From NCBI GenBank assembly GCA_016649995.1, contig JAENWJ010000001.1, positions 41,460 to 105,459 of the forward strand: a stretch of 64,000 bases of DNA, in the 5' to 3' direction. Numbering within the stretch: the stretch's first letter is position 1; each line of letters starts with the position of its first letter. Shown piece after piece: positions 3,119 to 39,398 of this stretch. The position numbers were made by a program, and so were the translations under genes. The notes under the pieces are model-generated. The model searched no databases. It saw only the letters and a program-made list of their open reading frames with translations, and was not told where the DNA came from. The stretch comes from Peptostreptococcaceae bacterium (lineage in GTDB: Bacteria; Bacillota; Clostridia; Peptostreptococcales; BM714).

Positions 3119-4354
3119 ATGAAATACGAATATCTTAGAAAGGCTGATCCTGAAATAATGGATGTATTAAATAAGGAATTGTATAGACAAAGGAACGGAA
3201 TAGAATTGATTGCATCGGAGAATTTCATTTCAAAGGCTGTTATGGAAACGATGGGAAGCACTCTAACAAATAAATATGCTGAAGGCTATCCCGGCAAAAG
3301 GTATTATGGAGGATGCGAAGAAATTGATGTGGCTGAAGAATTGGCTATTGATCGATTAAAAAAGCTTTTTGGAGCAGAACATGCAAATGTACAGCCTCAT
3401 TGTGGGTCCGCGGCAAATTTTGCAGTATATCAGTCAGTATTGCAGCCGGGAGACGTTGTAATGGGCATGTCGCTTACGCATGGAGGACATTTGACGCATG
3501 GAAGCCCTGTAAATCAGTCAGGAAAGCTTTACAAATTCATAAGCTACGGAGTCGATAAGGAAACGGAAAGAATCGATTATGATGATGTTGAAAAAATTGC
3601 AAGAGAGAGCAAACCCAGGTTGATTGTAGCGGGAGCAAGCGCATATTCACGGGAAATAGATTTTGAAAAATTCAGAATGATAGCTGATGCAGTAGGCGCG
3701 TACCTTATGGTTGACATGGCTCATATTGCAGGATTGGTTGCTGCAGGCCTTCATGTAAATCCTTGCCCTTATGCCGATTTTGTAACGACGACCACGCATA
3801 AAACATTAAGAGGACCAAGGGGCGGAGCCATTCTTTGCAAAGCGGAATACGCAAAGATAATTGACAAGGCCATTTTTCCGGGGTCTCAAGGCGGACCGTT
3901 GATGCATGTAATTGCCTCGAAAGCCGTTTGTTTCAAAGAAGCTGCTACAGATGAATTCAAACGATATCAAGAGCAGATAATAAAGAATGCCAAAGTATTG
4001 GCAGCGGAATTAAAGATAAGAGGCTTCAGAATTGTTTCAGATGGAACAGACAACCATATGATGCTGCTTGATTTGCGAAGCAAAAATATCACAGGCAAGG
4101 ATGCGGAAAAAAGGCTAGATGAAATAGGCGTAACTGTAAATAAGAACACCGTTCCATATGATTCCGAAAGTCCTTTTATCACCAGTGGAATTCGTTTGGG
4201 GACTCCAGCGGTAACAACAAGAGGCATGCGTGAATCGGATATGGCTGTTATTGCTGAAATAATAAAAGGTGCAATTGAAAGGGATATTGACGACGATTCA
4301 TTGAAAAACGATGTAAAAGAACTTTGCAAAAAATTCCCTTTATACGAACAATAA
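3119..4354 (+). CDS. glyA: serine hydroxymethyltransferase
   Basis: Carries the SHMT PLP motif [14 protein letters not shown]. Start placed at ATG 3119 after AAGGGG. Confidence 0.95.
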
Positions 4355-36578: not shown

Positions 36579-36592
36579 CAAACATAGGTTCG
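36579..36592. promoter_or_regulatory. SOS (Cheo-type) box upstream of lexA
   Basis: The minus strand reads CGAACCTATGTTTG, which matches CGAAC-N4-GTTCG with one mismatch. It sits between the recombinase stop and the lexA start. Confidence 0.7.
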
Positions 36593-36593
36593 A

Positions 36594-37706
36594 TTAATCG
36601 TTTTCAAGCCATTCAAAATTCTTGATAATTTCGCGTTTTTGATCTCTTTTGTGGGCTGAATACAATTGTGTGGTAGTGACATTGTCATGGTCTAGTAAAT
36701 TTTTCACATCGTAGATGGAAAAGCCTTCCTCAATCAATGATGTCGCAGCGGTTGCTCTAAGCTTGTGCGGACTGTATCCGTTTTCCTTGGTCGTTCCTAA
36801 AGCGATAGCTGTATATTTTTTTACGATATCCCTTATTGCCCTTTGAGTAAGGCGTTTTTTTTGCATAGAGAGAAGAAGTGCGTCTTCCCCTTTGGATGCG
36901 TACCGGCTCCGTTCAATATTAAGGTAGTCTGTAAATGCGCCCTCAACCGACTTGTTTATTGGCATTGCCGATTCTTTGCCTCTTTTTCTGTAAATAAGGA
37001 ATTCTCCGCGGCTTAAATTGAAAGATGAAATATTTAATTGCTGAAGCTCCATAAGACGCAGTCCATATGTTGTGAACAAAAGCAGTATCAGCATATCCCT
37101 GTGCCTTGTTTTTTCCCAATATACCATTTCTTTTTCAGTTAAACCTTTTCCACTTGCTACACAGTCGAACATTATGCGAACCTCGGCTATATCAAGCCTC
37201 TTAATCGCATCAGGTTGCGGTTTTGGCAACTTTATCGGGTTGAAAGCATCAGTTATATTGCTAGGCATAATTTCTTCGCGATATAGGAATTTAAAAAGCA
37301 CGCTTAATGATGATTTTTTCCTTGATAGCGATCGATTATGGTTTTCCATAATTATTGACTGTTTTCCCTGTTCAATTAGATATCTTGAACAATATCCACC
37401 AATATATCGATTGACATCCTTTGCCGTTATGCTTTTAATGTCATCTATGGGAATCTCTCGGATTGAAGAAGCCGAAGAAAGAGGACTTTCGCTTATCATA
37501 TAGTTAAGGAAAAATTTTAAATCAAGCAAATAGGCAAGCCGTGTAGAAATTGCAACCGAACTCTGGAGATACAAAAAATAATCGTATAAATAGTCTGGAA
37601 GAAGTTTTTCGAGTTCCAGGCATTCCTGAATAATGCCATGTTCATAGGCGACCACGTTGGTAGGTTTCGACGATTTATTGTGAACCTTTAGAATTTTGTT
37701 TAACAT
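36594..37706 (-). CDS. tyrosine site-specific recombinase, XerS/XerH-sized (370 aa)
   Basis: C-terminal catalytic pattern: GLRLMEL (Arg), HKLRATAATSL (HxxR) and LDHDNVTTTQLYSAH (Tyr). An extended N-terminal domain makes it longer than the ~300-aa XerC/D. AT-rich like the host, and it lies outside the island repeats. Confidence 0.85.
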   Translation of the reverse strand: MLNKILKVHNKSSKPTNVVAYEHGIIQECLELEKLLPDYLYDYFLYLQSSVAISTRLAYLLDLKFFLNYMISESPLSSASSIREIPIDDIKSITAKDVNRYIGGYCSRYLIEQGKQSIIMENHNRSLSRKKSSLSVLFKFLYREEIMPSNITDAFNPIKLPKPQPDAIKRLDIAEVRIMFDCVASGKGLTEKEMVYWEKTRHRDMLILLLFTTYGLRLMELQQLNISSFNLSRGEFLIYRKRGKESAMPINKSVEGAFTDYLNIERSRYASKGEDALLLSMQKKRLTQRAIRDIVKKYTAIALGTTKENGYSPHKLRATAATSLIEEGFSIYDVKNLLDHDNVTTTQLYSAHKRDQKREIIKNFEWLEND

Positions 37707-37725
37707 GAATAATTTCCCCCTTATT

Positions 37726-37750
37726 AACTATTCCCTAAATATACAATTAA
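37726..37750. repeat. left copy of the island-bounding direct repeat (attL-like)
   Basis: AACTATTCCCTAAATATACAATTAA versus AACTATACCCTAAATATACATTTAA at 45937-45961. 23/25 positions are identical, with a 13-bp perfect core CCCTAAATATACA. Confidence 0.75.
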
Positions 37751-37860
37751 TATTCAGTAGGTTACCTTTTACAATACTGTTATATTGTGGTACAGAGTCG
37801 TCGCGGAATGTGTGACGCTCTTAGTATATTTTAGGAATAGTTGAATGTCAATAAAACTCA

Positions 37861-37916
37861 AAAACTCTCCTACTACGTAAGATAAGCATCTTGCGGAGTA
37901 GGGGAGTTTTTTTTAT
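37861..37916 (+). promoter_or_regulatory. stem-loop plus T8 immediately upstream of rep, with the RBS inside the 3' arm
   Basis: AAAACTCTCCTACT (37861-37874) pairs with AGTAGGGGAGTTTT (37897-37910), 13 of 14 positions plus one G-T pair, across a 22-nt loop. T-run follows, then the rep ATG at 37917. Confidence 0.45.
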
Positions 37917-39026
37917 ATGCGTAAAAAGGGACGGACGAAGAAGAAGGACCAAAAGAAGCTTAGCGACTGCATGGCCATGTCGGAGCAAAAAGAGTTTATC
38001 AATTCCAAAATTGGAGACCAGGAGCTACAAATTCCTTGTTGTCTTGAAAGCCCAAAGGGCTTATATAGATTAATTCCGACAAGAATGCAGGACCATCTCC
38101 AAAACCCTTCCAAATACGAGTACTTGGCTTGCTACACAAAATTTGGAAAATTGGACTATCACCCGTACAACTTGGACAATTTCGAAGCTATACTGATGAA
38201 CAACTTCACGCAGTCGGTGGCGCTCATAGATTCAACGCAGATCCTTTTACAAAACGAATTGACTGGAGAATATAAAGTCGTTCAACCTCGGGAATCTTGC
38301 CGCTACTTTGAAAAAGGCCGGAAGAAAATCAAGAAAAAAATATATAAACGCCTGGGGCATAACAAAAACCAAAAGGGAATATTTCTGACGGTGACGTATG
38401 ATCCTAAAATTACGAGCCGGTACAAGGCATGGGAGAGCGTGGGGAAAGATATTTCAAAACTGTTGGAAGCAATGAATAAGCAGCGCAAACGGAATCGAGG
38501 GATTAAAGAGCGCCTAACTTATTTATGGGTGATAGAAGAGCAGCAGAACACCGGCTGGCCACATGTTCATTTTTTCTTTCCAGGGATCAAGTCTTTGCTA
38601 GGGTTTAGAAAAATCAAACAACTGTGGGGGAAAGGGACGGTGGAAGTACATAGCGACAAGAGTTGCAAGGTTGCAAGCTATGTCACAAAATACATAACGA
38701 AAATGTCGGGCTTCTCGCTTTTGGGCTTGGCTCACATGTGGCATAACAAACGCAGGCTTTATGGCTTTTCGAGATCCTTTGCAGTGAAAACACCGAAGGA
38801 AGAAAAACAAAGTTACAAACTTGTGGGCATGTCAAACAACAAGATGGGCTTCGGGAAATGGGACTGTGAGTTTAAAGAATATACATGGCTTGGCACTGTG
38901 GTGTGGGAATGGCTGCTTGGAGAAAACGCAGCATTCGAGGACCCAGGAGGGAAAGATCTCCTGCTAGAAAACAATAATTTCATAATGAAAGCAAACTTGA
39001 AAGAAGAAGAGGAGGACTGGTTTTAA
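37917..39026 (+). CDS. HUH-superfamily rolling-circle replication initiator
   Basis: Motif 1 GIFLTVTYD (38376-38402), motif 2 HVHFFF (38562-38579) and motif 3 YVTKYITK with two Tyr spaced as in phiX174-type Reps (38679-38702). Confidence 0.8.
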   Translation: MRKKGRTKKKDQKKLSDCMAMSEQKEFINSKIGDQELQIPCCLESPKGLYRLIPTRMQDHLQNPSKYEYLACYTKFGKLDYHPYNLDNFEAILMNNFTQSVALIDSTQILLQNELTGEYKVVQPRESCRYFEKGRKKIKKKIYKRLGHNKNQKGIFLTVTYDPKITSRYKAWESVGKDISKLLEAMNKQRKRNRGIKERLTYLWVIEEQQNTGWPHVHFFFPGIKSLLGFRKIKQLWGKGTVEVHSDKSCKVASYVTKYITKMSGFSLLGLAHMWHNKRRLYGFSRSFAVKTPKEEKQSYKLVGMSNNKMGFGKWDCEFKEYTWLGTVVWEWLLGENAAFEDPGGKDLLLENNNFIMKANLKEEEEDWF

Positions 39027-39247
39027 TGATAGATCCATTTATGCTTGTGGTGCTTTTACTCATACAGGTGGTTTTTCAATGGGGCATTGCGTTTCTTTTC
39101 ATTGTGCTCATTAAAAAATATCTAGGGAAATCAATCAAGAAAGGGGTTGGAAGTGTTGGAGAATCAATCAAGGATAGGCTCGGAAGCATACAACAATCTT
39201 TTGCAGGGAGCGACGATAGCAAAGTTCCGGAAGATCCTGTGGAATGA
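39026..39247 (+). CDS. small membrane protein
   Basis: 73 aa. The ATG overlaps the rep stop (TAATG). N-terminal ~30 residues are hydrophobic (FMLVVLLLIQVVFQWGIAFLFIVLI). Confidence 0.55.
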   Translation: MIDPFMLVVLLLIQVVFQWGIAFLFIVLIKKYLGKSIKKGVGSVGESIKDRLGSIQQSFAGSDDSKVPEDPVE

Positions 39248-39398
39248 CATCGACCCGACCGTGGCGGTGATGAAGATATGCCGGACGTTCAATAAACAAA
39301 AGTTATTGCAGAAAAACAAAAACAAAGAAATGGTGATTGCTAACCTGCGGGCTTTTTATCAAGCTCGCTTGGACGAATTGGAAGGGGTGAACCTATGA
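39153..39398 (+). CDS. hypothetical protein (overlapping frame; start uncertain)
   Basis: Its stop overlaps the next ATG (ATGA coupling). GTG 39153 lies 6 nt after AAGGGG. It overlaps the 3' end of the preceding ORF by ~95 nt; an alternative start is ATG 39270. Confidence 0.35.
   Translation: MLENQSRIGSEAYNNLLQGATIAKFRKILWNDIDPTVAVMKICRTFNKQKLLQKNKNKEMVIANLRAFYQARLDELEGVNL

Follow-up and report, generated by a model that had tools for sequence, protein, structure and literature searches.

Which kind of mobile element depends on the predicted rolling-circle initiator that is encoded, next to a recombinase gene of the host, in the Peptostreptococcaceae genome GCA_016649995.1, and how does this element replicate, integrate, and perhaps become packaged? 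The open reading frame (ORF) in question, rep, occupies positions 37917-39026 on the + strand of the 64,000-nucleotide stretch of contig JAENWJ010000001.1 that was analyzed (hereafter the window). It is open for 369 aa, and its product Rep, a two-tyrosine HUH rolling-circle initiator, is deposited in GenBank as 'hypothetical protein' MBK5251092.1 (JJE29_00380). We consider it highly probable that this ORF codes for an initiator of the Pfam family PF23343 and that Rep alone serves as dedicated replication protein in an integrated element, about 8.2 kb long and resembling tailless viruses, which exploits the Xer system of its host. The element extends from about 37746 to 45956, and all its ORFs are intact and located on one strand.

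The initiator and its family

The three motifs listed in a preliminary description of the locus are present exactly as noted there and follow each other in the canonical order of motif 1, HUH, and YxxKYxxK. GIFLTVTYD (motif 1) corresponds to residues 154-162 of Rep (nt 38376-38402), WPHVHFFF to residues 214-221 (nt 38556-38579) with the HUH itself at residues 216-218, and SYVTKYITK to residues 254-262 (nt 38676-38702) with Y255 and Y259 within YVTKYITK. When 134 family members are aligned with MAFFT, the catalytic positions prove to be widely kept, i.e., T160 in 126, H216 in 127, H218 in 133, and Y255 in 133 sequences, and the same applies to K258 (123), Y259 (131), and K262 (129). The Lys-rich N-terminus pointed out in the preliminary description is real as well and reads MRKKGRTKKKDQKK. 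Because the relatives P0001 and P0004 to P0006 are likewise basic in this region, the start codon of rep seems credible; a Shine-Dalgarno sequence, GGGGAG, lies 10 nt 5' of it.

Rep passes the Pfam model PF23343 (REP_ORF2-G2P, 'Replication-associated protein ORF2/G2P') with an E of 7e-15 and 55.6 bits versus a gathering threshold of 27.8, the match spanning positions 2-98 of a profile of 99, and the same domain is precomputed for the Rep homologs P0001 to P0003. Among the PHROGs, Rep belongs to phrog_3419, 'rolling circle DNA replication initiation' (E 4e-8). PF05840 (Phage_GPA), the family of P2 gpA and phiX174 gpA, remains below its cutoff with 16.2 versus 31.4 bits and covers only the region of motif 1. 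The kinship with phage gpA proteins proposed earlier is right at the level of mechanism, whereas the formal family is a different one; as judged from its motifs, Rep seems to work like the Phage_GPA Reps, yet it stands outside PF05840. No Pfam match at E<=1 connects Rep with the plasmid initiators of the pC194/pUB110 (Rep_1), pMV158 (Rep_2), or pT181 (Rep_trans) types, which agrees with its earlier separation from them, and a tblastn search with Rep against 72,556 plasmids gives a single weak match only. A word-indexed search of 5.8 billion clusters retrieves just three homologs, and an exhaustive profile search finds 797 representatives at E<=1e-3, among them 84 at E<=1e-30. Pattern scans detect Rep neither in IMG/VR nor in the GTDB species representatives.

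An AlphaFold2 model of Rep, built on 50 sequences, reaches a predicted local distance difference test (pLDDT) of 86.3 and a predicted template modeling score of 0.83. Three domains are predicted, an N-terminal one (residues 20-146), the HUH core (residues 150-290), and a C-terminal β domain (residues 300-335). With this model, Foldseek detects 151 predicted viral proteins in BFVD at E<=1e-3; most of them are unnamed, and the named ones are mainly viral Reps of rolling-circle replication. The best match is ORF1 of HRPV-1 (E 5e-10, template modeling (TM) score 0.42), although HRPV-1 (Pleolipoviridae) is an archaeal pleomorphic virus that has no structural genes in common with the element, and many microvirus replication initiators (about 1e-6) as well as a Vibrio inovirus Rep are found too. 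Among solved structures there is neither a sequence match nor a Foldseek match at E<=1e-3, and the matches below this threshold (E 0.03-0.25) comprise a Helitron transposase (E 0.03), RepB, and the Reps of porcine circovirus 2 and of adeno-associated virus (AAV).

Profile alignment with hhalign brings all three motifs of PM2 P12 into register with those of Rep (E 7.9e-5), i.e., VFYTIT, PHWH, and GYIAKYISK with FLTVT, PHVH, and SYVTKYITK, although P12 comprises 634 aa and the profile match is marginal (probability 61%). For phiX174 A, HUH and YxxKYxxK are aligned (E 0.019, probability 2.4%), and tblastn of Rep against microvirus initiators gives an E of 9e-3. Reps of the Microviridae (phiX174 gpA, gokushovirus VP4) therefore share with Rep the YxxKYxxK site (FYVAKYVNK in phiX174), the HUH motif, and the predicted fold, whereas the sequence kinship is weak. 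ORF1 of P23-77, in contrast, is unrelated. According to its model, Rep adopts the HUH fold. The alignments with PM2 P12 and phiX174 A bear out its placement in the phiX174/PM2/inovirus class, and on sequence grounds Rep is confirmed as a genuine two-tyrosine (superfamily I) HUH endonuclease, an ordinary enzyme that adds a further member to a family already known, PF23343.

Among the other 17 ORFs between the attachment (att) sites, searches of Pfam, PHROGs, and NCBIfam identify no polymerase, primase, helicase, or second initiator. The claim that Rep is the only replication gene can therefore be maintained in the sense that the element shows no sign of any further replication function, and, because a two-tyrosine HUH Rep stands alone in this way, rolling-circle replication is a reasonable assumption. 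Rep would nick one strand of the circular element at its origin, with Tyr255 or Tyr259 taking the 5' end and His216 and His218 holding the metal. Host helicase and polymerase would then perform the rolling-circle synthesis, and the second tyrosine of Rep would terminate and re-initiate the round.

Borders, target site, and host recombinase

Direct att repeats border the element at 37721-37759 and 45932-45970 and have an exact core of 13 nt, CCCTAAATATACA, in common. In attL (37721-37759, + strand; core at 37733-37745), the host arm and centre ACTATTCCCTAAA-TATACA are joined to the element sequence ATTAATATTCAGT, and in attR (45932-45970, + strand; core at 45944-45956) the element arm ACTATACCCTAAA and TATACA are followed by the host arm TTTAAAGTATAGT. 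With 1 mismatch to attB, attR recreates a near-intact dif-like palindrome. The motif of arm plus centre, 19 nt long, occurs 3 times in the 64 kb versus 0.04 times expected. Comparison of attB, attL, and attR puts the crossover within the 13-nt core, and the predicted circular junction reads ...CAACTATACCCTAAATATACAATTAATATTCAG... Because the crossover falls in this core, the joined non-coding region consists of 45731-45956 and 37746-37916 and comprises 397 nt, so that the circular junction of the preliminary description was nearly right and its length of about 370 nt too short.

The target of insertion is a conserved imperfect palindrome, ACTATTCCCTAAA-TATACA-TTTAAAGTATAGT. Its inner 25 nt are identical in five element-free genomes (L004, L005, L007, L008, and L009), and 24 of the 25 are so in a sixth (L006), the recombinases encoded in these genomes being 61-92% identical to that of the window. 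At the empty site of L004 the order is purB, terminator, GTACTATACTTTAAATGTATATTTAGGGAATAGTT, xer, and lexA. GC skew falls across the 25-nt site in all six genomes and changes its sign in four of them (L004, L007, L008, and L009). Within the window, both skew and the orientation of the genes switch at 36-46 kb, + genes standing in a ratio of 19:1 to the left and of 0:15 to the right. As a whole, the imperfect palindrome comprises 32 nt around a TGTATA centre, its inner 25 nt being the conserved part, and in L007 it lies 2.5 kb from the recombinase gene. From these sequence features, the target is probably the dif site of the host.

Outside the element, at 36594-37706 on the - strand, the host encodes a XerS-like tyrosine recombinase of 370 aa (PF00589, E 3e-25), for which XerS is the best NCBIfam model (5e-45), followed by XerC, XerD, and XerA. 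Orthologs that are 58-92% identical occur, with the same site nearby, in element-free genomes (L004 to L013) of Peptostreptococcaceae, Alkaliphilus, Serpentinicella, and Peptoclostridium. This neighboring recombinase is rejected as an integrase belonging to the element, since genomes devoid of the element conserve the gene together with that site and the circular relatives of the element do not carry it (see below). None of the element ORFs matches an integrase, a transposase, or a serine recombinase, and the host XerS-like enzyme is presumed to serve as integrase and excisionase.

The single-recombinase systems XerS/difSL and XerH/difH are characterized by a dif site that is linked to the recombinase gene (PMC5357621), and in them, as here, a recombinase of about 360-370 aa is linked to a palindromic site at the terminus. 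The target of the element differs from difSL in having a 6-bp centre, TGTATA/TATACA, like classical dif, whereas the centre of difSL comprises 11 bp. The xer gene at 36594-37706 beside the palindrome might constitute a candidate single-recombinase Xer/dif module, comparable arrangements being found in L004 to L009 (Peptostreptococcaceae, Alkaliphilus, and Serpentinicella); a review of Xer recombination from 2017 does not mention such a system for Clostridia (PMC5357621).

PM2-like 'dif-type' prophages of Vibrio are integrative mobile elements that exploit Xer (IMEXs), and their attP sites are full-length, left-armed, or right-armed (PMC12715192). Like IMEXs, the element and its circular relatives are devoid of a recombinase of their own, the attP imitates a dif site, and such a site is restored at one of the junctions. 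We conclude from this sequence evidence that the element appears to be a prophage of the IMEX type, whose circle would be integrated and excised by the Xer-like enzyme of the host.

The same att core invites another explanation, namely that Rep itself inserts and excises the element in the manner of HUH transposases and integrases (IS91, Helitrons, AAV Rep), the core CTAAATATACA being both nick site and origin. Two-tyrosine HUH enzymes include transposases, the model of Rep weakly matches a Helitron transposase (E 0.03, as mentioned above), and among non-coding motifs the att core alone is conserved throughout the group (null expectation 0.15). The nature of the target, however, makes this explanation highly improbable: it is a palindrome with a 6-bp centre, identical at 25 of 25 positions in element-free genomes of several genera, and it is situated at skew flips and, in most such genomes, beside a Xer-like gene. 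In addition, a crossover inside a common 13-nt core by which the site is restored bears the signature of tyrosine recombinases and of known IMEXs (PMC12715192). Integration by the host Xer-like recombinase is the explanation that we prefer.

Relatives, control region, and candidate origins

Relatives of the element were compared by tblastn and profile searches across 94 loci. The module of an ATPase and two small proteins described in the next section accompanies Rep only in the window, L002, L016/L017, L018, and L001/L019. Two of these loci are circular, L001 with 8093 nt and a terminal overlap of 127 nt (a circle of about 8.0 kb) and L017 with 7272 nt and an overlap of 73 nt (a circle of about 7.2 kb); both are without an integrase, have the same gene order as the window, and carry TAAATATACA in the spacer between the lysin gene and rep. 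C(C)TAAATATACA(A) is the only sequence that is common to the lysin-rep spacers of the four complete genomes, with a null expectation of 0.15. Arm and centre are present as ACTATnnnnTAAATATACA in the window, L001, and L018, and as the variant AGAGTTCCCTAAATATACA in L017/L016. The attP of L017 is a full palindrome and those of L001, L018, and the window consist of a good left arm and centre followed by a degenerate right arm, a variety that matches the full-length, left-armed, and right-armed classes of the PM2-like Vibrio prophages (PMC12715192). L002, a 4.4-kb contig from an independent sample, codes for a Rep that is 91% identical to that of the window; it starts exactly within the att core (CCCTAAATATAC...), which fits with the assembly having broken at an att site that is repeated or recombining.

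Of the 80 other metagenomic loci (L021-L094), about 60 encode, in addition to Rep, an Xis-like helix-turn-helix (HTH) protein, a LuxR-type HTH protein, and a tyrosine integrase of their own of 400-500 aa, and several of these Rep-Xis-integrase loci lie inside large contigs (L022, 670 kb; L083, 96 kb; L093, 89 kb). Because Xis-like HTH protein and integrase accompany Rep in so many loci, the Rep family seems to be mainly one of integrative plasmid-like, apparently non-viral elements.

The cognate nick site had been expected within the non-coding junction of the circle. This expectation is unproven, as phiX174 and PM2 are nicked within their rep genes (annotated at 4306 in gene A of phiX174, within which its origin lies, and at 2253/2254 in gene XII of PM2), the region upstream of rep is poorly conserved, and only the att core is conserved group-wide. 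Between the window and L002, rep is about 85% identical at the DNA level and the region upstream of rep about 58%, the conserved islands upstream being restricted to the att core, GTCAA together with an inverted copy of the att arm, and, within the hairpin next to rep, TGCGGAnTAGGGG on its 3' arm.

The two hairpins named in the preliminary description do fold. The stronger one (37860-37911, + strand; -18.9 kcal/mol as DNA, z -9.4, 0/200 shuffles) is located directly 5' of rep and is followed by T8; its 3' arm holds, and thereby sequesters, the Shine-Dalgarno sequence, and the analogous hairpin of L002 differs in sequence. It is a candidate for an origin hairpin and looks more like a terminator or an element of translational control. 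The weaker hairpin, at 37794-37821 (+ strand) in the spacer between att and rep (-7.0 kcal/mol, z -2.6), is not conserved in L002.

Two sequences resembling known origins were considered and rejected. The phiX174-like origin core ACTTGATATTAAT has one match with 2 mismatches on the - strand at 37746-37758 beside the att core, which has a chance expectation of about 0.2-0.5 and is not found in L002, and CTTATCTT, which we take to be a pC194-like origin sequence, lies on the - strand at 37879-37886 in the loop of the stronger hairpin and is absent from L002. The PM2 cleavage-site sequence has no match, and scanning the non-coding parts of four genomes by k-mers and mismatches returns the att core only. 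The longest runs identical between the window and L002 lie within the 5' third of rep, at 38194-38239 (46 nt) and 38055-38089 (35 nt), and are noted here because phiX174 and PM2 carry their origins in that region; they are candidates only for internal origins and are not statistically exceptional.

A third copy of att arm and centre, ACTATTCCTAAAATATACT, is inverted and located on the - strand at 37823-37845 (19-nt motif at 37823-37841), 79 nt inside attL. In single-stranded DNA (ssDNA), pairing between this copy and the att arm is possible, and the copy is kept in L002 and L003 at 79-80 nt from the core; L001 possesses an analogous 20-nt inverted repeat with a spacer of 83 nt. For the reconstructed attP, folding gives a forked hairpin (-19.7 kcal/mol, z -4.8) whose stem comprises one arm and the centre only. 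For comparison, attP1 and attP2 of CTXphi are likewise inverted copies, spaced by about 80-90 nt. Partly made of the inverted copy is a promoter-like sequence on the - strand, TTGACA-17-TATACT (37851 to 37823; 11 of 12 positions sigma-70-like), which points out of the element toward attL and the host xer gene and is present in L002 (TTGACT-17-TATACT) and not in L003. As far as can be judged from its position, it may restore or alter the expression of xer in lysogens.

Another promoter-like site, TTGACA-18-TATTAT at 45831-45860 on the + strand (11 of 12 positions matching), would read over attP into rep solely in the circular form, and by uncoupling rep from this site integration may constitute a built-in lysogeny switch. 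Lysogeny genes resembling RstR or XafT were not detected in the element, and Rfam gives no match to an RNA family between 35.8 and 46.1 kb. A search for LexA boxes finds a single one, preceding lexA, and none in the control region of the element, so that there is no sign of a direct control of the prophage by LexA. The box itself, the Cheo/SOS-box-like CAAACATAGGTTCG at 36579-36592, overlaps the start region of lexA, suggesting that lexA is autoregulated.

The putative morphogenesis module and the packaged genome

At 40436-41089 (+ strand), the element codes for a P-loop ATPase of the FtsK/HerA type, putatively for genome packaging (phrog_2666, 2e-18; further matches to HerA/FtsK profiles). 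Relatives in phages are confined to 'DNA packaging ATPase' genes of Microbacterium phages of about 15.5 kb, which we take to be tectiviruses, and the match of the element's enzyme to the ATPase of P23-77 is weak (E 0.007). Directly 3' of the ATPase gene, in the window as well as in L001, L017, L018, and L002, lies the gene for a small candidate major capsid protein (MCP) of 155 aa (candidate A; 41763-42230, + strand), proposed from synteny and weak structural matches. Its single-sequence AlphaFold2 model is poor (pLDDT 52), and the top matches of this model in the PDB, SH1 capsid chains (E 2.8e-3) and P23-77 VP16 (E 0.026), are below threshold with TM scores of about 0.3; hhalign against VP16 gives an E of 0.003 and a probability of 10%. 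A conserved partner gene (42320-42721, + strand; the ORF opens at 42284) codes for candidate MCP B, 133 aa as annotated at NCBI, for which there is no match to a family or to a PDB sequence and no hhalign signal with P23-77 VP16/VP17. Profiles of the capsid candidates retrieve nothing from the PDB sequences and tblastn nothing from phages, and pattern scans of IMG/VR for the ATPase and candidate A are without a match. The place of both genes 3' of the ATPase gene, where P23-77 has its capsid genes, is suggestive, a lead and not a demonstration. At the level of sequence, no element ORF matches a double-jelly-roll (DJR) capsid protein like PM2 P2 in Pfam or PHROGs, and the only ORF of DJR size codes for a 277-aa protein that looks like a repeat-containing spike.

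This spike- or fibre-like protein is encoded at 42723-43556 (+ strand), and its C-terminus resembles BclA_C (PF18573, E 1.2e-5, below the cutoff), the BclA C-terminal domain being C1q/TNF-like. Its gene contains three tandem repeats of 87 nt (29 aa) at 42809-43072 that are 90-91% identical. A peptidoglycan hydrolase with a C-terminal hydrophobic tail follows at 45167-45730 (+ strand), a glucosaminidase (PF01832, E 1.8e-13; phrog_3513, endolysin) with a putative role in lysis or entry. Every member of the group has, according to tblastn, a small Cys/His-rich, zinc-finger-like protein (39395-39679, + strand; 94 aa, C2H2-like plus CxxC), possibly a DNA-binding regulator.

In PRD1, PM2, and P23-77, an ATPase of the FtsK/HerA type goes along with the packaging of double-stranded DNA (dsDNA). 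Because such an ATPase is conserved in the group, virions with dsDNA are favored by analogy. The preliminary description had left ssDNA and dsDNA as alternatives for the packaged genome; its inference of a rolling circle is retained, and this choice can now be narrowed. The circles produced by Rep would be converted to dsDNA, the ATPase would package them into capsids made of the two small proteins encoded 3' of it, and the glucosaminidase would free the virions.

That the element is instead an ssDNA virus packaging the strand displaced by Rep, as microviruses, FLiP, and HRPV-1 do, and perhaps integrating as a folded single strand in the manner of CTXphi with the help of the inverted att copies, is unlikely. 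Such a virus would fit the small genome of just 7-8 kb, the ssDNA-virus Reps that are the best structural relatives of Rep, the inverted att arm and centre, and the forked hairpin of attP. However, a packaging ATPase of the FtsK/HerA type is present in all members of the group, whereas the ssDNA DJR phage FLiP lacks one (PMC8812541). Furthermore, the stem of the hairpin provides one arm and the centre, whereas a full site has two arms, the attP of L017 is conventional and fully palindromic, and single-armed attP sites in dsDNA are known from PM2-like IMEXs (PMC12715192). A bolder combination, i.e., a not yet described family of Bacillota viruses with minimal genomes (7-8 kb), icosahedral particles, and two small capsid proteins of the single-jelly-roll type and, in addition, a Rep-made ssDNA circle whose att hairpin is the real substrate of the XerS-like enzyme, appears quite unlikely. 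If true, its first part would mean a two-MCP virus half the size of any known helvetiavirus, and its second part CTXphi-type ssDNA integration outside the filamentous phages and the XerC/XerD systems.

Most members of the Rep family reside in plasmid-like elements with Rep, Xis, HTH protein, and integrase, and no capsid family is recognized by sequence, so that one might also think of a non-viral integrative plasmid or of a decayed remnant in which Rep is out of use. This is very unlikely in view of the intact ORFs on one strand, the intact catalytic residues of Rep, and the 91% identical copy from an independent sample. Moreover, ATPase, two small β-rich proteins, spike-like protein, and lysin make up a typical tailless-virus module for morphogenesis and lysis, which is syntenic in the circular relatives.

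Some observations weigh against a dsDNA prophage that replicates by Rep and uses the Xer system. The capsid assignment draws on synteny, on protein size, and on Foldseek and hhalign matches that stay below threshold and come from a poor model, the closest structural neighbors of Rep come from ssDNA viruses, and neither an origin nor a nick site has been located for Rep. The recombinase, on its part, remains below the NCBIfam cutoff for XerS (153.8 versus 267), and a role in dimer resolution is attributed to it from its context.

Among known viruses, PM2 and the PM2-like dif-type prophages (Corticoviridae) resemble the element in their small circular genome, the FtsK/HerA ATPase, the absence of an integrase, and probably also the integration at the host dif via a dif-mimicking, sometimes single-armed attP (PMC12715192). 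In contrast to Corticoviridae, the element has no recognizable DJR capsid gene and resides in a Gram-positive anaerobe with apparently a single, XerS-like recombinase, whereas the hosts of PM2-like prophages use XerC/XerD. Microviridae differ in their F-type capsid protein, in their ssDNA virions, and in lacking a packaging ATPase. The element shares with inoviruses (gpII/RstA) and the CTXphi IMEXs the name of the Pfam family, REP_ORF2-G2P, a rolling-circle Rep as sole replication protein, and, probably, dif integration by the host Xer system, whereas it lacks the morphogenesis genes of filamentous phages (Zot/pI, coat proteins), possesses an icosahedral-type ATPase module, and would form a hairpin with one arm only. 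Known helvetiaviruses reach up to 31 kb. With these Helvetiavirae (P23-77, SH1, Simuloviridae) the element has in common the order of ATPase, small proteins, and two adjacent small genes for capsid proteins, here candidates only, but they have genomes of 16-31 kb and Thermus or haloarchaeal hosts, compared with 8.2 kb in Peptostreptococcaceae. Within this group, the Simuloviridae are described as temperate viruses with circular dsDNA of 16-19 kb and two single-jelly-roll MCPs (PMC12642351).

The element belongs to an undescribed group of viruses and is comparable to PM2-like, dif-integrating prophages of tailless viruses with rolling-circle replication, from which it is set apart by a Clostridia host with an apparently single Xer recombinase, by a structural module foreign to phage databases, and possibly by two single-jelly-roll capsid proteins. 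A plasmid-type Rep is here joined to a viral morphogenesis module for which neither a set of 50,697 phage genomes nor IMG/VR holds a detectable homolog, except for the ATPase with its relatives in Microbacterium phages. Integration by exploitation of Xer would be extended from hosts of the Vibrio type with XerC/XerD to a lineage of Clostridia with an apparently single recombinase, and the element indicates where dif and the terminus probably lie in these genomes. Should the capsid assignment prove right, this would be by far the smallest varidnavirus-like genome with two MCPs and would bear on the origin of such viruses from rolling-circle plasmids.

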